From: Promethearchaeota archaeon
GTDB taxonomy: Archaea; Asgardarchaeota; Lokiarchaeia; Sigyniarchaeales; SOKP01
Assembly (NCBI GenBank): GCA_019058445.1
Contig: JAHPZA010000008.1
Coordinates: 10,315 to 74,314 of the forward strand
Direction: 5' to 3'
DNA: 64,000 nucleotides
The notes beneath the pieces were generated by a model. It made no database searches and was not told the DNA's origin. It worked only from the letters and a program-made list of their open reading frames with translations. Below are positions 33,103 through 41,274 of the stretch, in pieces; within the stretch, counting starts at the first letter, position 1, and each line of letters opens with the position of its first letter. The position numbers and the translations under genes are program-made.

Positions 33103-34019
33103 TATTTATCCCCCATGGCTATTTTTTGAATTCTAGCATATTCTTCAGAATATTCTGGTTTATCTGACTCATATCTGAATTCCCCGATAATATATTTATT
33201 AAATAACTCCTCCTCAGTCATGAATTTGGCTTGATTTATTCTTACGCTGTTTCTTTTTATCCAATCTACCATTTTTCCACCAGTATCCATCTTTTTTCCC
33301 TCTAATCCTAAATATTCTGCACCTAAGCTATCTACATTTTTTCTTCCAAAGTAAGTAACACAGGGAGTAACGATTTCAATAACTGAAGTTCCTTTATGCT
33401 TTAAGGCTTTTTTAAAATATTTCATAAAGGTACGGGGATGTGCGACCGTTGTTCTTGCCACGTGAGTAGCTCCTGCAGCTAAAGCAAGTTTAATACCATC
33501 ACTTCGATTTTCAAACATAGTATAAGGTGTAGTGCTGCTTTTAGCTCCAAAAAGAGTTGTAGGTGCTCCTTGACCTCCCGTCATTCCATAAATACTATTA
33601 TTGAAGATAAATATGACACAATCTAGATTTCTTCGGCATAGATGGATGAAATGATTACCCCCAATGCCTAAACAATCTCCATCACCTGAAAAGACTATGG
33701 GTTTCATATTGGGATTAGCCATTTTCATTCCGGTAGCTACAGCTGGAGCTCTCCCATGAAGTGCTAAAACTTTTTGAGCGTCAGCATGAACTAATAGCAA
33801 AATCTGAGAATAACAGCCGATTCCAATTACTAACGGATGTAAATTCGGATCTAACTTTAAATCCTCAAAAACACGAGTGTAAATTTGTCCAATTATCCCA
33901 TATCCACAACCAGCACAAAATCTCGAAGAATAAGTGTTTAATATGCGACCGGCATATGAATCCAAAACATAAGGATGTTCTGGCTTCTCACTCGGATACA
34001 TTGGAAGTTCTCCCGACAT
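33102..34019 (-). CDS. korB: 2-oxoacid:ferredoxin oxidoreductase beta subunit (TPP-binding)
   Basis: FCAGCG, GIGC, LHGR, GDGD, NNSIYGMTGGQ, PCVT. Confidence 0.92.
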   Translation of the reverse strand: MSGELPMYPSEKPEHPYVLDSYAGRILNTYSSRFCAGCGYGIIGQIYTRVFEDLKLDPNLHPLVIGIGCYSQILLLVHADAQKVLALHGRAPAVATGMKMANPNMKPIVFSGDGDCLGIGGNHFIHLCRRNLDCVIFIFNNSIYGMTGGQGAPTTLFGAKSSTTPYTMFENRSDGIKLALAAGATHVARTTVAHPRTFMKYFKKALKHKGTSVIEIVTPCVTYFGRKNVDSLGAEYLGLEGKKMDTGGKMVDWIKRNSVRINQAKFMTEEELFNKYIIGEFRYESDKPEYSEEYARIQKIAMGDK

Positions 34020-35197
34020 TATTGTGCCACCTCCCTTATTGCTTTTAAAATATCATCTGGATGATGAAACACCGCTACTTGAGGAACTTTAATGATAGGA
34101 GTTCCAAGTGGAGTAACTCGTTCAACTTGCTCCGCAATAATTCCAGTGTAATTTAATTCGGGAACAATAACGGCTTTAGCATTTTTTACTACTTCTTTTA
34201 CTTGTTCATCTGGAAAGGGCCAGACAGTAATTAATCTAAAAGCTCCCACTTTAATTCCCTCTTCACGTGCTATTTCAATTGCTCTATAGCTTACTCTTAC
34301 AGGTAGACCATAAGCAATTATAACGATTTCAGCATCATCTAACTTATAATTTTCGGTAAGACAAATCTTATCCTTGTTTGTTTTAATTTTATCAACCATA
34401 GTCTGTACAAATCGAAAAGGATCAGGTGATAATATTCCTTCGGGACCGTGGGGAGTATGTAAAAACATACCTGGTACATATTCTGTTCCCATGATAGGTG
34501 GTTTAGGAATTACATATTCATTTTTGACTTTGTCTAAGTAGGAAAATACACGAGGACTAATCTCTTCAGATGGAGGGACCTCTCGTTTTATTACCTTATT
34601 TAATATCTCTTCTTTTGGCGGGATATCAACGACTTCATGTAAATGTCCTAAATACGCATCAGATAGGATAAATACAGGGCAACGATATGTCTCAGCATAA
34701 TTAAATGCAGTGATTGTTAAATCAAAGAGTTCCTGGCAATTCATAGGAGCTAATGCTATTACTTCAAACTCACCATTTCCAGAAAAACGTACAAGTCCTA
34801 GATCGTTATGATGAGGATCTGTTACGCTTCCAGTACCAGGACCACAGCGTTGTACATCGCAAAAAACAAAAGGAATTTCAAGATTTGCTGCCATTGAGAT
34901 AGTTTCTACCATTAATGACAGTCCTGGTCCAGAAGTTGCAGTCATAGCTTTTGCACCGACCAATGATGCGCCCATTACCGAATTAATAGATGCTAATTCA
35001 TCTTCCATTTGCATGCAGACACCCCCGACTTGAGGCAATCTTTTTGCAAGATGTTCAATTACCTCAGTACTTGGAGTTATGGGATACCCTCCAAAAAACC
35101 TTAAACCAGCGGATATCGCTCCCTCGGCCATAGCTTCATTGCCCATCATTAAATGTCTTCCTGGTTTTAGAAATCTTTTACCATTTTGATTATTCAT
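34019..35197 (-). CDS. korA: 2-oxoacid:ferredoxin oxidoreductase alpha subunit
   Basis: GNEA, GYPITPSTE, QMEDE, TATSGPG, QRCGPGTG; true start is ATG 35197 after GAGGTGA, not the track's 35344. Confidence 0.92.
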   Translation of the reverse strand: MNNQNGKRFLKPGRHLMMGNEAMAEGAISAGLRFFGGYPITPSTEVIEHLAKRLPQVGGVCMQMEDELASINSVMGASLVGAKAMTATSGPGLSLMVETISMAANLEIPFVFCDVQRCGPGTGSVTDPHHNDLGLVRFSGNGEFEVIALAPMNCQELFDLTITAFNYAETYRCPVFILSDAYLGHLHEVVDIPPKEEILNKVIKREVPPSEEISPRVFSYLDKVKNEYVIPKPPIMGTEYVPGMFLHTPHGPEGILSPDPFRFVQTMVDKIKTNKDKICLTENYKLDDAEIVIIAYGLPVRVSYRAIEIAREEGIKVGAFRLITVWPFPDEQVKEVVKNAKAVIVPELNYTGIIAEQVERVTPLGTPIIKVPQVAVFHHPDDILKAIREVAQ

Positions 35198-35210
35198 ATG
35201 ATTCACCTCT

Positions 35211-35495
35211 TTATGTTTTGGCTTTTCCAGCCGAATTTTCTGTACCCTCTTCAATGATATAGATTGCCCAGTCCGGACAACCAAATTCACACCGCCTACA
35301 CATCGTACAATACTTTTCTTTGCCTTCCTTGACTCTTGGAACATAAGCTATTCGCATATTTAATTCATCTCCGATTTCTAATATACCCGTAGGACACACT
35401 GCAACACATATTTCACAGCCACCACATCGATCTTTATTAAAAAATAAGGAAAAATTTTTTTCTTTGTTTTCAATTAATTTTGGAATTTTAATCAA
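35211..35495 (-). CDS. korD: 2-oxoacid:ferredoxin oxidoreductase delta subunit (2x[4Fe-4S] ferredoxin)
   Basis: CGGCEICVAVCP and CTMCRRCEFGCP; start is TTG 35495 or ATT 35486. Confidence 0.9.
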   Translation of the reverse strand: MIKIPKLIENKEKNFSLFFNKDRCGGCEICVAVCPTGILEIGDELNMRIAYVPRVKEGKEKYCTMCRRCEFGCPDWAIYIIEEGTENSAGKAKT

Positions 35496-35528
35496 CTCCG
35501 TTAATTATTGAGTAATTAAATATGTTAA

Positions 35529-35542
35529 CAGTTATAAATTTC
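35529..35542 (-). promoter_or_regulatory. BRE/TATA-like element GAAATTTATAACTG upstream of korD
   Basis: Identical 14-mer also at 39222..39235 upstream of the dehydrogenase. Confidence 0.5.
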
Positions 35543-35623
35543 AATTTATTAAATTTTAAGTTTTTTCAAAATAAATCTTAATTGAAAGAATGCCATTATT
35601 TTTTTTTAAAAAAGTAGATAGTA

Positions 35624-35698
35624 TTATAAGTTATTGTATTCTTCTAGTCTTTTTTCAGCAATATCATCAATACTGCCATAATCTAAATAATTTAACAT
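35624..35698 (-). pseudogene. 3' stub of an isocitrate/isopropylmalate dehydrogenase-family gene
   Basis: Reads YGSIDDIAEKRLEEYNNL* vs YSNTDDVAKKILEEYKKL* at the end of 37952..39130; 45/57 nt identical by manual alignment. Confidence 0.75.
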
Positions 35699-35804
35699 AG
35701 AGAATTTATTTTAATAAAGAAATTATATTAAGTAACACTTACTTGCATTTGAAGTCTTTTAAAGAAACATTAGTGCAAGCAATTTATATTTAAAAGAAAT
35801 AGTT

Positions 35805-36215
35805 ATGAAACGAAAAATTCGTGTCCTCATAGCTAAACCAGGTCTAGACGGCCATGCTCGAGGGGCAAAGGTAGTCTCAATGGCATTAAGAGACGCTGGG
35901 ATGGAAGTAATTTATACAGGACTTCAACAAACACCTGAACAAATAGTCAATGCTGCTTTACAGGAGGATGTTGATTGTATTGGAATATCCATTCTAAGTG
36001 GTGCTCATATGACATTAATACCTCGCATCTTAGAATTGATTAAAAAACAAGGATTATCAGATAAATTAATAATCGCAGGAGGCACTATTGTTTTAGAAAA
36101 AGATATAGAAGCTCTCAAGGAATTGGGAGTTAATGAAATATTCGGTCCAGGAACTCCAACAAAAGAAATTATTGATCATATTAATCACTATTTTGGAATA
36201 ATCAATAAACTTTAA
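35805..36215 (+). CDS. Acyl-CoA mutase cobalamin-binding small subunit
   Basis: [10 protein letters not shown] (DxHxxG), SILSGAH, GG, FGPGT. Confidence 0.95.
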
Positions 36216-36247
36216 AATTCAATAAACAACCAAAGAGGCAATAAGAA

Positions 36248-37909
36248 ATGTATGATAAAGAGAAATTAAAAGAAATAAAAAATAATGAGGTGTTTTGGAA
36301 AAATATAATTGTTCAAAAATGGATTGAAAGATTTCCTGAAATAAAAAATGAATTCAAAACATCTTCAGGTATAATACTTAAAAATGTCTATACTCCCATA
36401 GATATCGTGAATTTGGATTATTCAAATGACCTTTCATTTCCCGCTATTTATCCTTTTACACGTGGAATTTACCCAAATATGTATAGAGGTCGAATATGGA
36501 CTATACGTCAAGTAACAGGGTTTGGTAAGGCCGAAGAAACCAGTGAAAGACTTTCTTTTTTAGATAAAGCAGGACAGACAGGTCTAAATATTGTTTTTGA
36601 CATGCCTACTCACCATGGGTTGGATTCGGATGATCCTATCGCAGAAGGAGAGGTAGGTAGAGAGGGCGTTGCGATTGATACAATCAAAGATATGGAAGAT
36701 CTATTTGATGGAATTCCTCTTGATCAGGTAAGCACTTCACTCATAACGATCGGTGCAGCCCCGATATTACTGGCTATGTATATTGCAATAGCTGAAAAAA
36801 GAGGGATGAAATCTGAAAATTTAGCAGGTACTATTCAGAATGATTCTATTACTGCTTTTGCAGTAACTGGTGCTGAAGGTTCTGGTATCAGGCTTGATCC
36901 GCTTATAAGACTTGCCGTAGATACTGCTGACTATTGTATCAGATATATGCCAAAGTGGTATCCATTAAGTATTGTAGGATATCATATACGTGAAGCTGGA
37001 GCTAATGCAGTTCAAGAATTAGCATTTACCTTAGCTAGTGGTATTGCATATGTTAAGGAACTTTTAAAAAAAGGATTGGATATTGATGAGATAGGACCAA
37101 AGATAACATTCTTCTTTGGTGCGCATAATAATTTTTTCGAAGAAATTGCTAAATTCAGAGCTGCCCGAAGGATGTGGGCTCGAATTATGAAGAAATGGTT
37201 CCATGCTAAAGATATAAGATCAATGGTTTTAAAATATCACGTTCAAACCTGTGGATGTACCTTAATCGCTCCACAACCAGAAACAAATATCATAAGAACC
37301 ACGATTCAAGCTCTAGCAGCTATTTTAGGTGGAACAAATTCTTTGCATACCAATTCTATGGATGAAGCATTTGCTTTACCCTCAGAAAAAGCATCGAGAA
37401 TTGCTGTAAGGACTCAGCAAATTATAGCTCATGAATCAGGAGTAGCTGAAGTATGCGACCCTCTTGGTGGTTCTTATTTCATAGAGGCACTCACTAATGA
37501 AGTCGAAAAAGAGGCTTATAAGTATATCGAAAGAATTGAAGATATGGGTGGGATGATTGAAGCTGTGAAAAAAGAATATATTCAAAATGAGGTTGCAAAG
37601 TCAGCTTATAAATATCAAAAGGATATAGAAAGCGAAAAAAGTATTGTGGTGGGTTTAAATAAATACCAGATTGATGAGAAATTAGAACTTAACCTCTTTA
37701 AAATAGGACGCAATTATGAAATACGGCAAATTGAAAATTTACAAAAGATTAGAAAAACAAGAGATAATCTTAAAGTTAAAGAAGTTTTATCTGAAATTAG
37801 TGATGGATTGCATAAAGGTGAAAATCTTATGCCGCTGCTAATTAAAGCAGTCAAAACCTATGCAACAATAGGAGAACTTATGGGAATATTAAAGAAGGAT
37901 TTAATTTAA
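36248..37909 (+). CDS. Acyl-CoA mutase large subunit (methylmalonyl-CoA mutase family, atypical specificity residues)
   Basis: PFTRG, WTIRQ, GLDSD, GTIQND, YHIREAG, EIAKFRAARR, SLHTNSMDEA, DPLGGSY. Confidence 0.93.
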   Translation: MYDKEKLKEIKNNEVFWKNIIVQKWIERFPEIKNEFKTSSGIILKNVYTPIDIVNLDYSNDLSFPAIYPFTRGIYPNMYRGRIWTIRQVTGFGKAEETSERLSFLDKAGQTGLNIVFDMPTHHGLDSDDPIAEGEVGREGVAIDTIKDMEDLFDGIPLDQVSTSLITIGAAPILLAMYIAIAEKRGMKSENLAGTIQNDSITAFAVTGAEGSGIRLDPLIRLAVDTADYCIRYMPKWYPLSIVGYHIREAGANAVQELAFTLASGIAYVKELLKKGLDIDEIGPKITFFFGAHNNFFEEIAKFRAARRMWARIMKKWFHAKDIRSMVLKYHVQTCGCTLIAPQPETNIIRTTIQALAAILGGTNSLHTNSMDEAFALPSEKASRIAVRTQQIIAHESGVAEVCDPLGGSYFIEALTNEVEKEAYKYIERIEDMGGMIEAVKKEYIQNEVAKSAYKYQKDIESEKSIVVGLNKYQIDEKLELNLFKIGRNYEIRQIENLQKIRKTRDNLKVKEVLSEISDGLHKGENLMPLLIKAVKTYATIGELMGILKKDLI

Positions 37910-37951
37910 GTTTCATAAGAAATTATAAAAATTTTAAAAATAAATCATCTT

Positions 37952-39130
37952 TTACAATTTCTTATATTCTTCTAGTATTTTTTTAGCAACATCATCAGTG
38001 TTGCTGTATTTTCCCTCTTTTCTAAAATTTAGAGGTACGGCATCTGCTGGTAAAAACATCCAATTCTTTTCAACATCAAGTCCATGAGCTAATGTATTTT
38101 CTAAGGCATGCATGAGTTTTTTAGATTCTGTTTCAAATCCTAAGTAATCAAGCATCAAGGTAGCTGAAACTATCGCTGCTGCAGGGTTTGCGATTTTTTG
38201 ACCTGCTATATCAGGAGCAGAACCATGAGTAGGTTCGAAATATGGGATTTTTGGACCATAAACACCAGAGCCAGCAACACCCAAACCTCCCACAATTTGA
38301 GCCGCTTCATCGCTCAAAATATCCCCCATCATATTGGGAATTACTATAGTATCGTGATAGTCAGGAAATCTTATTAACCGGGCCGCAAAATCATCCACAA
38401 TATAAGTCTCTACTTTTAAATCGGGAAATTCGGTCTCGGCTATTTTTTTTATTCTTTTAATGAACATACCGTCTTGCTGGCGAAAAATATTAGGTTTGCA
38501 GACGATTTCAAGCAATCCTTTTCCAACACCCTCATTTTTGCGTTTCATACACAGCTCGCAAGCTGCTCGACCTACTCTGTCAGTCGCGTGGGGGGATACC
38601 ACCCTTAGGCCATAAATTGCCTTTTCAGTCCATCTTTCAATCTCTGGTTTATAGATTAATCCTTTTTTAATTAATTTTGTAATTTTTCCTTCTTTCCCTA
38701 CTGCTGCATATGCGCCTTGCGTACATTCTCTTACAAACACATAATCAATGTTTTCTACCAATTCTGGTTTGAGATTGGTATCCATTCCTTTAAAATATTT
38801 GATAGGCCTTATATTAGCATAATTTCCAAGCCCCCAACGCAAATATGCAATGACTTGTGTTGCTGTTTCGTGCGTTGCTCCAAATAAAACTGCATCGCTA
38901 TTATTTACTGCTTCTTTTGATTCAGGAGGAAAAGCGTTACCATGTGTTTGTATAGCACTCTCTCCACAAGGCATACTTTTGATTTCTAAACCATTAATTT
39001 TCATTCCCTCCAAAATAAAAACAGTCGCGTTGACAACCGTTGGTCCGATACCGTCTCCCCCCAGAGCTGTGACAACTTTTTTTGATTTATCAATATTTGG
39101 GCATTTAAGCACGCTTCTGTATCGTTCCAT
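37952..39130 (-). CDS. Isocitrate/isopropylmalate/homoisocitrate dehydrogenase family (beta-decarboxylating dehydrogenase)
   Basis: GDGIGP, YANIRP, KPN, NMMGDILSD, FEPTHGSAPDIAG, ANP. Confidence 0.92.
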   Translation of the reverse strand: MERYRSVLKCPNIDKSKKVVTALGGDGIGPTVVNATVFILEGMKINGLEIKSMPCGESAIQTHGNAFPPESKEAVNNSDAVLFGATHETATQVIAYLRWGLGNYANIRPIKYFKGMDTNLKPELVENIDYVFVRECTQGAYAAVGKEGKITKLIKKGLIYKPEIERWTEKAIYGLRVVSPHATDRVGRAACELCMKRKNEGVGKGLLEIVCKPNIFRQQDGMFIKRIKKIAETEFPDLKVETYIVDDFAARLIRFPDYHDTIVIPNMMGDILSDEAAQIVGGLGVAGSGVYGPKIPYFEPTHGSAPDIAGQKIANPAAAIVSATLMLDYLGFETESKKLMHALENTLAHGLDVEKNWMFLPADAVPLNFRKEGKYSNTDDVAKKILEEYKKL

Positions 39131-39221
39131 TATTTTTTTTCCACTTCTTTATAATAATTATTTAATTTTAATTGAAAAATTAAGAGAGTTTTATTAATAA
39201 TAATTTAAATTAATCTTATTG

Positions 39222-39235
39222 CAGTTATAAATTTC
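39222..39235 (-). promoter_or_regulatory. BRE/TATA-like element GAAATTTATAACTG upstream of the dehydrogenase
   Basis: Identical to 35529..35542. Confidence 0.45.
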
Positions 39236-39440
39236 GATATATTACAATAAAAGTCTTTTAAGATAAATTATGTTCCTAAATAAATCAATTATTCATACAA
39301 ATATGTATTTTTTAGAAGCAAACTTTACTTTTTACACCAATATTTCTTTCTAGGTTTTTTTATATTAATTGTCTCATATAAATCACATACTAATTGATAT
39401 GAGAAATTGTATTTTTTACCAAGACGCCAAGCGCAAGAGT

Positions 39441-40109
39441 TTAGATTTTCTTAATAAGATTTTCTTTTAATTTTAAGAAATTTTTAAATTCTTCTGTAAG
39501 ATTTGTAGTTTGGTTGTTTATATTAATATTAGGTGGTAATTTCTCAATATCTCTTCTTTCATATCTTCTTTGAAATACAAATAATAAAAAAATAATAGAA
39601 CATATGAACAATGATATTATAAAAGCAGTAGTTCTAGAACTTTTTAGAAATTCGGAATTTTCAAATAACCCATGTAAGAGAAATATCGATGATATAAATA
39701 TTAGGATAAATGAGAAGAAAATTAAAAATTTGTCCAAAAGTTTAGCATAATAATTGGCTTCTATTTCTCTAATCGGGTTATGTATCTTGTTTCCTTTAAT
39801 CGTACAAGACTTAGCCTCAAATAACACAATTTTGTAGATTGAATTATTTATAATTGAAAGATAATAACTTTTATCTACCCAAATTTCAAAAATCCTGCTA
39901 TTTTCAATAGAAATATTTTGAGAATTTTTCAAATTAATTCGTTCAATAGTAATATTTCTTAGAATTATATTATAATCGATTTTTTCAAACCACAAGAGTT
40001 CATAAGGATCTTTAATAGAGTCAATAATGATAGGATCGCTTCTTGTACCAATACCTTTCCAATAATGCTTTTTTTGATATTCTTTTATATTATAGTTATT
40101 AATTATCAT
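39441..40109 (-). CDS. Parallel beta-helix repeat protein with two TM helices
   Basis: 'WKGIGTRSDPIII' cap motif followed by NI(S/T)I repeats; two hydrophobic helices near the C-terminus. Confidence 0.6.
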   Translation of the reverse strand: MIINNYNIKEYQKKHYWKGIGTRSDPIIIDSIKDPYELLWFEKIDYNIILRNITIERINLKNSQNISIENSRIFEIWVDKSYYLSIINNSIYKIVLFEAKSCTIKGNKIHNPIREIEANYYAKLLDKFLIFFSFILIFISSIFLLHGLFENSEFLKSSRTTAFIISLFICSIIFLLFVFQRRYERRDIEKLPPNININNQTTNLTEEFKNFLKLKENLIKKI

Positions 40110-40177
40110 TATCTATTCACAGATTTTTAGATATTTCAAGATATTTCTTCGATTATATCTCTGCAATCTTTCCTTTA

Positions 40178-40285
40178 TCATTTTTTATTTATCATTCTGT
40201 GTCCTCCAATATTCACTCCACCTAATGCGATAATAGTTTTTTTCGTTTTATCTAAATTTGGAATTTTTAATATCCTATTTGCCAT
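40178..40285 (-). pseudogene. 5' stub of an isocitrate/isopropylmalate dehydrogenase-family gene
   Basis: MANRILKIPNLDKTKKTIIALGG... vs LKCPNIDKSKKVVTALGG in 37952..39130 (12/18 aa identical), stops after 35 aa. Confidence 0.7.
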
Positions 40286-40428
40286 ACTTTTCACTTGTTC
40301 TTTTATTTAATAGATAAAATAATAATTTAAATATCAGTTTTTTCCCCTTTTTGAATCAATACTATAAAATAATTGTTTTCATTTGATTTGATTATAAAAC
40401 TAAAATAAATATATGCAATTGATAAAAA

Positions 40429-41274
40429 ATGAATTATGAGACAATAAAATTTGAATTGCAAGAAAATGGTATAGGATTTTTAACATTTACCAGAGCAGAT
40501 AAAGCAAATGCTATGTCGTTTCAAATGGTTGAAGAACTTCATTCGATATTTGACGATTTAATGATTAATCTGGATTGTAGAGTGCTAATTGTTAAAGCAG
40601 AGGGGAAAGTATTTAATGCCGGTCAAGATTTGAATGATGGAACGATTTTAAAGCAGAAAAAAAAGCCTGAACGCTATAAAAATTTTTATTATTTAGATAT
40701 CCCTGAAGTGCTTAAAAATTTTATGTATTATCAAACTCGGATCTCACATCTTATTATAAAAATGAGAAAAATTTCCCAACCAATTATTGCGATGGTTCAA
40801 GGTGCTGCAATGGGAGCAGGGTTCTCTTTTACTTTAGCAACTGATATCCGGATTGCCAGTAAGGAAGCAAAGTTCAATGCTGCTTATATTAACCTTGGAT
40901 TAACAGGTTCAGATATGGGTAGCAGTTACTTCCTACCTCGTCTAGTAGGTATGTCAAGAGCTGCTGAACTTTTATATACTGGACGCTTTTTTGATGCTGA
41001 GGAGGCTCTGAAAATGGGGTTTATCTTAAAAATTGTGGAGAGAGATAAATTACTTGATTCTGCTTTAGAACTTGCCGAAGAATTACTTACTAAAAGTCCT
41101 TTAGGATTAAGGATGACAAAACAAGCCATAAATTTAACTCTTGATTCTCCCAGCTTAGAAACAATGATTCAATTTGAAAATCGTGGTCAAGTATTAAGTG
41201 GTAGTTCTGAGGACATTTGGGAAGCATTTTATGCCTATATGGAAAAGCGAAAAGCCAAATTTCCTTTACGTTAA
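40429..41274 (+). CDS. Enoyl-CoA hydratase/isomerase (crotonase) family protein
   Basis: ANAM, FNAGQDL, PIIAMVQGAAMGAG, DIRIAS, LPRLVG, TGR. Confidence 0.92.
   Translation: MNYETIKFELQENGIGFLTFTRADKANAMSFQMVEELHSIFDDLMINLDCRVLIVKAEGKVFNAGQDLNDGTILKQKKKPERYKNFYYLDIPEVLKNFMYYQTRISHLIIKMRKISQPIIAMVQGAAMGAGFSFTLATDIRIASKEAKFNAAYINLGLTGSDMGSSYFLPRLVGMSRAAELLYTGRFFDAEEALKMGFILKIVERDKLLDSALELAEELLTKSPLGLRMTKQAINLTLDSPSLETMIQFENRGQVLSGSSEDIWEAFYAYMEKRKAKFPLR

Follow-up and report, generated by a model that had tools for sequence, protein, structure and literature searches.

A candidate acyl-CoA mutase of a narrow, uncharacterised specificity class in an Asgard archaeon

To our knowledge, about half a dozen substrate pairs have been described for the B12-dependent acyl-CoA mutases. 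In methylmalonyl-CoA mutase (MCM) the carboxylate of the substrate is held by Tyr89 and Arg207, isobutyryl-CoA mutase (ICM) has Phe at the position of Tyr89 and Gln at that of Arg207, and in 2-hydroxyisobutyryl-CoA mutase (HCM) Asp117 is the hydroxyl ligand. Herein we analysed a 64,000-nucleotide stretch of a Promethearchaeota archaeon (assembly GCA_019058445.1, contig JAHPZA010000008.1, positions 10,315 to 74,314), hereafter the window, which encodes a two-subunit member of this family. The source genome is labelled G000 and its relatives G001, G003, G005 and G008. A first-pass annotation, made from the letters alone, had described the large subunit as a mutase whose specificity residues match no recognised family and had proposed a new, probably bulkier or non-carboxylate acyl-CoA as its substrate. 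Our analysis suggests that the gene pair probably encodes a functional adenosylcobalamin (AdoCbl)-dependent acyl-CoA mutase of a narrow, uncharacterised specificity class, with an uncharged acyl-CoA as the predicted substrate, and the name ‘methylmalonyl-CoA mutase’ given to it in databases is almost certainly mistaken. The two genes are:

36248..37909, plus strand: large (substrate-binding, TIM-barrel) subunit, 553 amino acids, PF01642
35805..36215, plus strand: small subunit with a B12-binding domain, 136 amino acids, PF02310 (E 2e-25) and TIGR00640 (E 1e-49)

The open reading frame (ORF) of the large subunit is free of stops across its 553-residue translation and aligns to PF01642 (MM_CoA_mutase) over model positions 1–509 of 512 (E 4e-198). 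It also matches TIGR00641 and the generic NCBIfam model ‘acid_CoA_mut_N’, while it scores 278 bits against the IcmF equivalog NF045497 (cut-off 1500) and 539 bits against the MCM equivalog NF006944 (cut-off 876). The small-subunit gene lies upstream, separated by a gap of 32 nucleotides, in the split alpha/beta architecture that is the usual form in archaea; its product carries the DxHxxG motif as DGHARG (amino acids 15–20, nucleotides 35847–35864) together with an SxL-type motif and a GG motif, and is 84% identical to the orthologue in G005. An Rfam scan of positions 35200–40500 returned no riboswitch and no other credible RNA. The closest solved structure by sequence is the large subunit of HCM (4r3u, 44% identity, E 2e-145); human and bacterial MCM come next. 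An AlphaFold2 model of the large subunit (pLDDT 77.8, pTM 0.85) likewise found 4r3u as its top fold match in Foldseek (TM 0.91).

Residue equivalences were taken from HMMER alignments to HCM 4r3u and human MCM, and from further MAFFT alignments with E. coli ScpA, M. petroleiphilum HcmA and archaeal MCM-type and ICM-type paralogues. The reference genes came from annotated records and comprised ScpA, HcmA, the HCM cluster of Xaut_5021 and the enzyme of Mycobacterium ELW1. Up to residue 207 the numbering of the window protein coincides with that of P. shermanii MCM. The four motifs quoted in the first-pass annotation were all located in the ORF, namely WTIRQVTGF (amino acids 84–92), GLNIVFDMPTHH (112–123), QNDSITAFAVTGAEG (197–211) and YHVQTCGC (330–337). 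Val89 (nucleotides 36512–36514) stands at the position of MCM Tyr89, HCM Ile90 and the Phe of the ICM type, Val116 (nucleotides 36593–36595) at that of HCM Asp117, where MCM and ICM have Ala, and Thr207 at that of MCM Arg207 and of the Gln of ICM and HCM (Gln208 in HCM). The segment QNDSITAFAVT (amino acids 197–207, nucleotides 36836–36868) begins with QNDSITA, in contrast to the QNDILKE that is otherwise universal. We refer to the clade that carries this Val signature as V-type. Its specificity residues are thus unlike those of MCM, ICM and HCM, as had been claimed, and also unlike those of Xaut_5043 (discussed below), in a pocket comparison that covered these four. The substrate of ethylmalonyl-CoA mutase (ECM, Ecm/MeaA) is a dicarboxylate, for which carboxylate ligands such as those lost here would be expected to be necessary.

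The radical machinery, by comparison, is retained. GYHIREAG (amino acids 244–251) holds Tyr245–His246 (nucleotides 36980–36985), the equivalent of the catalytic pair Tyr243–His244 of MCM, HxQT is kept as His331 and Gln333 (MCM His328 and Gln330), Gln197 is kept, and the ribose-contact motif NSxDE is present as LHTNSMDEA. Together with the DxHxxG of the small subunit, this bears out the earlier statement that the machinery is intact, except that YHVQTCGC, which had been quoted for the Tyr–His pair, is in fact the HxQT motif. When 160 columns that are near-invariant in 37 MCM-type and ICM-type sequences were examined, 121 proved to be kept in the V-type and 20 had switched to a residue that is fixed in the four of four V-type sequences of the alignment, the remainder being variable. 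The fixed changes cluster at 86, 114–116, 165–168 (MTIN to LITI), 201–203 (LKE to ITA), 243 (Ser to Val), 282–285 and 364. This pattern of kept and switched columns indicates a functional shift rather than decay.

These residues bear directly on the public annotation, under which relatives of the protein are named ‘methylmalonyl-CoA mutase’. MCM (P. shermanii 1REQ, human MMUT 2XIJ, E. coli ScpA) has the fold and the radical machinery in common with the V-type, and a 2-oxoacid:ferredoxin oxidoreductase (OFOR) operon, which could make succinyl-CoA, lies alongside the gene in the window. Nevertheless, both carboxylate ligands are replaced in the V-type, the score against the MCM equivalog is far below its cut-off, the adjacency of the OFOR operon arose by insertion (see below), and the genomic partners of a methylmalonyl-CoA pathway are missing. 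The G000 assembly (4.61 Mb, 10 contigs, 92.6% complete) contains one PF01642 gene, the one in the window, and tblastn with sequences from relatives found no MCM-type, ICM-type or third-type paralogue in it. MeaB was sought in the same assembly and not found (PF03308 at most 20.5 bits; nothing by tblastn with the MeaB of relatives), the best candidate for the epimerase reached 46 bits against a cut-off of 115 (TIGR03081), and the carboxyltransferase family PF01039 had no match. The earlier observation that no epimerase or MeaB is adjacent to the gene therefore holds, and not for the neighbourhood alone but for all 4.6 Mb of the assembly, and because the genome has no other mutase, MeaB, epimerase or carboxyltransferase, the methylmalonyl pathway is excluded. 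A true methylmalonyl-CoA mutase is hardly credible on this evidence, and the proposal of a non-carboxylate substrate is well founded, with both carboxylate-binding residues gone and the pathway partners absent from the genome. The further suggestion of a bulkier substrate is a conjecture from the smaller side chains at these positions.

The closest solved relative is HCM, and the possibility was weighed that the V-type acts on hydroxyacyl-CoA in the manner of HCM or of RCM, the (R)-specific 2-hydroxyisobutyryl-CoA mutase RcmAB of Kyrpidia tusciae. It would then interconvert 2-hydroxyisobutyryl-CoA and 3-hydroxybutyryl-CoA, with Ser200 and Thr207 standing in for Asp117. HcmAB (Aquincola tertiaricarbonis 4R3U, with homologues in M. 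petroleiphilum PM1 and X. autotrophicus Py2) has the same split large and small architecture, is the best solved match in both sequence and fold, and shares with the V-type FDMPT, an aliphatic residue at the Tyr89 position (the Val here being near to the Ile of HCM), GYH, HxQT and DxHxxG. An enoyl-CoA hydratase gene, moreover, adjoins the mutase module in G005 and lies 2.5 kb off in the window. However, relative to the HCM sequences (4r3u_A, M. petroleiphilum HcmA, Xaut_5021, ELW1) the V-type has Val for Ile90, Val for the hydroxyl ligand Asp117 and Thr for Gln208, and it reads QNDSITA where HCM has QADILKE. The trees place it in a separate clade that does not join HCM, and the HCM operon includes a 2-HIBA-CoA ligase, MeaH and a GntR regulator (L052, L054, L055), none of which is found around the gene in G000 or G005; the V-type locus is also without an adenosyltransferase, unlike the HCM locus. 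The adjacency of the hydratase is accidental, as orthologues occur in mutase-free genomes and the hydratases of the two loci share no more than 26% identity. A hydroxyacyl-CoA mutase of this kind is consequently an improbable explanation.

Nearest to the V-type outside its own clade are the uncharacterised ICM-type split mutases of archaea (Bathyarchaeia/Baldrarchaeia and Hodarchaeales), which are 52–57% identical to it and have the same architecture. GYHIREAG is common to both, and the Bathyarchaeia sequences also share HVQT.GC. The V-type has Val for the Phe of the ICM type, Thr for its Gln, Val for Ala116, ITA for LKE and LITI for MTIN, and the ICM-type genes of the relatives adjoin MeaB and often CobA, which the V-type gene does not. 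A second point of comparison is Xaut_5043/5044 of plasmid pXAUT01 of Xanthobacter autotrophicus Py2, which we take to be the native isovaleryl/pivalyl-CoA mutase (PCM). Xaut_5043 resembles the V-type in its small aliphatic residue (Leu) at the Tyr89 position, Ile-Ser at 201–202, Val before G-x-H and the lack of Arg at 207, and differs in its overall identity of 36%, LLPCCS at the FDMPT segment (112–123), GQH for GYH, an adjacent MeaB gene and a very distant branch in the tree. The shared features offer a hint of a branched hydrophobic substrate, in so far as the presumed identity of Xaut_5043 holds.

Both comparisons raise the question of whether the V-type might simply be isofunctional with ICM (isobutyryl/n-butyryl-CoA) or PCM (isovaleryl/pivalyl-CoA), with Val/Val/Thr forming an alternative apolar cavity. 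Consistent with this are the ICM Phe/Gln signature of the closest outside relatives (57% identity), the position of the V-type as the sole mutase in G000, where an ICM-type gene was not found, and the residues that it has in common with the presumed PCM, namely Ile-Ser/Thr at 201–202 and Val before G-Y/Q-H; a smaller residue in place of the Phe of IcmF, furthermore, favours pivalyl-CoA. Against it, an ICM-type gene is kept beside the V-type gene in G005, the changes of LKE to ITA and MTIN to LITI occur in none of the ICM-type sequences examined, and Xaut_5043 is far off in both identity and tree position. We regard an ICM or PCM activity as unlikely, though it deserves to be kept in mind.

The coexistence of paralogues in the relatives is informative here. 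These organisms have up to three other types, an MCM type (RQY ... ARGTY), an ICM type (RQF ... AQKSW), usually with MeaB and often with CobA alongside, and a third type, and G005 carries all of them in addition to the V-type. Since the V-type stands beside MCM and ICM types in G005, a non-redundant function and a distinct substrate can be argued for it. The third paralogue, as found in Hodarchaeales, is ~40% identical and reads WTMRLFSGH, QNDILTMTVGY and GYNYREGG, the last amounting to a change of His244 to Asn. It is nevertheless strongly conserved (ratio of nonsynonymous to synonymous substitution rates, dN/dS, 0.06–0.08) and adjoins a MeaB gene (L025, L028, L031–L033, L037, L039 and L041, for example at G005:C22:3624-5258).

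Within the class, the V-type gene was found in two of 161 genomes, G000 and G005. A GTDB scan with member P0274 returned the G005 contig only, and a scan of the JGI metagenome contig collection yielded no V-type member. With the members of metagenomic clusters included, 19 distinct V-type sequences were gathered, which fall into three sub-lineages that are 76–93% identical, and the signature and catalytic residues are invariant in all 19. The clade has 100% support in the trees, on a stem of 0.5–0.7 substitutions per site, and a site-heterogeneous model sets it apart from the MCM, ICM-like and HCM groups, in a poorly resolved radiation of non-canonical clades. In several of these, Val likewise occupies 89 and 116 but the catalytic His is gone, and it is the retention of the full catalytic set that marks the V-type among them. 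More widely, a survey of 150 representatives of 50% clusters (P0124–P0273) uncovered many PF01642 clades with non-canonical residues at 89, 116 and 207, and in many of these the His of GYH or the HxQT motif is missing. There are thus numerous unassigned mutase clades whose pockets have been rebuilt, and the V-type is one among many, which tempers its novelty. The first-pass proposal of a carbon-skeleton mutase for a new acyl-CoA stands as far as an intact, selected, two-subunit mutase of the AdoCbl type is concerned, while the enzyme is less singular than was implied.

One such clade is exemplified by Candidatus Abyssobacteria bacterium SURF_17 (L124:9806-13477), in which a mutase-like large subunit has RQV and GLNVVFDMPTHF like the V-type but GYN for GYH, and is followed by genes for a B12-binding subunit and an inosine-uridine nucleoside hydrolase.

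Selection was estimated from dN/dS by the NG86 method between G000 and G005, for which dS is close to saturation, and amounted to 0.14 in the large and 0.15 in the small subunit; other paralogues gave 0.05–0.10 over comparable genome pairs. At sites invariant in the 18 other members, the window copy carries two private substitutions (P488R and F517I). The gene is under purifying selection and is not decaying, and the relaxed selection that would have spoken for a degenerating gene was looked for and did not appear.

The surroundings of the pair in the window include the following features:

35627..35680, minus strand: C-terminal remnant of an Iso_dh-family dehydrogenase gene, last 18 codons, by tblastn; 53-nucleotide repeat D2
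40205..40286, minus strand: N-terminal remnant of the same dehydrogenase gene, ~27 codons from the ATG, by tblastn (14/23 identities, E 0.001)
37952..39130, minus strand: intact Iso_dh-family dehydrogenase, 392 amino acids, within the inserted block; diverged, 78% DNA identity to the resident gene of G003
39441..40109, minus strand: membrane ORF of 222 amino acids within the block, hydrophobic in its C-terminal half and without a match to any family

The mutase pair thus sits in a 4.5-kb block (~35681–40204) that is bracketed by the two remnants of a dehydrogenase gene. In G003, the closest genome (OFOR alpha subunit 96% identical), this Iso_dh gene is intact and directly upstream of the OFOR operon (L067), with no mutase near it, and the remnants in the window are collinear with it. 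The repeat D2 matches the 3' end of the intact copy at 81% identity. The dehydrogenase carried in the block scores below every NCBIfam equivalog cut-off, homoisocitrate/isopropylmalate dehydrogenase being the best match. Apart from the dehydrogenase-gene homology, the block ends show no inverted or direct terminal repeats of the transposon kind. In G005 the pair lies between an FAD oxidoreductase gene and an enoyl-CoA hydratase gene, which are directly adjacent, with an empty junction, in G003 and G008. The same junction in G000 (C6:175975-176885) holds a 209-residue multi-pass membrane ORF, which on comparison is not related to the 222-residue ORF of the block, and it appears to be a recurrent insertion site. 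The two-gene module is accordingly an insertion in both G000 and G005. The OFOR operon, the Iso_dh gene, the enoyl-CoA hydratase gene and a GH29-like gene were considered as pathway partners and set aside, their adjacency being secondary according to the synteny of G003, G005 and G008. The flanking pseudogene remnants have already diverged and the mutase is still intact, so the insertion is not recent.

With regard to the OFOR operon itself, the first ~40–45 codons of the alpha-subunit ORF at 34019–35344 (minus strand) are probably non-coding: the equivalent of this 5' stretch has stops in G005 and G001, and family matches start near residue 58–63. In-frame TAG codons noted in the OFOR alpha genes of relatives proved a false alarm, as they fall within this over-extended N-terminal stretch of the window ORF.

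An inserted module invites the reading that the protein is an inactive passenger in G000, or no longer an AdoCbl mutase, brought in by a mobile block that lacks cofactor genes. The block does interrupt a resident gene, the assembly yielded neither an adenosyltransferase nor MeaB nor any other AdoCbl enzyme, and the catalytic His has been lost in many metagenomic members of the family. Set against this are the intactness of both ORFs and of all catalytic and B12-binding motifs, the mere two private changes at clade-invariant sites, the dN/dS of 0.14 and the age of an insertion in which the mutase has nonetheless survived. In addition, the genome encodes 31 B12-binding domains, which clearly identifies the organism as a heavy corrinoid user and leaves room for import of AdoCbl. 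An inactive passenger is very improbable in view of these data.

Several observations do weigh against a functional enzyme of distinct specificity. Neither the CobA-type (PF02572) nor the PduO-type (PF01923) adenosyltransferase was found in G000, where tblastn with the CobA of relatives also gave nothing, and the G-protein chaperone and NrdJ were likewise not found there; in comparison, CobA is present in six of nine congeners, often beside a mutase, and MeaB in five of five relatives tested. The supply of AdoCbl to the enzyme in G000 is thus a difficulty for this reading, although the cofactor could be imported. The loop past residue 207 differs in length and sequence among the three sub-lineages, and the AlphaFold2 model is weak at 62–91, 337–342, 370–378 and 397–402, which are active-site segments; our guess is that the missing substrate and small subunit account for these stretches. 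Finally, because the module is inserted in both genomes, its neighbours (OFOR, Iso_dh and the hydratases) give no pathway.

On balance we still favour a functional mutase of a specificity class of its own, whose activity, cofactor and type of substrate are predicted here from the family, fold, motifs, fixed pocket, selection and missing partners described above. By homology, the small subunit would bind B12 in the base-off/His-on form and the large subunit would provide the substrate-binding TIM barrel. Homolysis of the Co–C bond of AdoCbl would generate a 5'-deoxyadenosyl radical that takes a hydrogen from the substrate, the thioester group would undergo a 1,2-migration aided by the conserved Tyr245, His246, Gln197 and Gln333, and the hydrogen would then be given back. 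The residues expected to select the acyl group appear rebuilt (Val89, Asn114, Val116, LITI at 165–168, Ser200, Thr202, Ala203, Thr207 and Val243), and the resulting pocket, predicted to have neither a positive charge nor an aromatic cap, would therefore not handle methylmalonyl-CoA or succinyl-CoA. The substrate would most likely be an uncharged short or branched acyl-CoA, possibly hydroxylated, and would differ from that of the ICM-type paralogue that coexists in the sister genome G005. A bolder form of the proposal, which we put forward tentatively and as quite possible without calling it probable, is that the enzyme rearranges an acyl-CoA outside those of the MCM, ICM, HCM/RCM, ECM, PCM and benzylmalonyl-CoA types, and does so with neither a MeaB-type chaperone nor a recognisable adenosyltransferase. 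If this were true, either import of AdoCbl or a new route of cofactor loading would be implied.

New substrate pairs in this family have each led to a pathway or to a route of biotechnological use, as was the case for ethylmalonyl-CoA, 2-hydroxyisobutyrate and pivalate. The V-type clade offers a clean candidate for a new specificity, in that it combines a complete set of catalytic residues with a rebuilt and fixed pocket in two small genes that are easily expressed. For the organism, the systematic mis-annotation as a methylmalonyl-CoA mutase, corrected here, would wrongly assign a propionate/succinate pathway to an Asgard archaeon.

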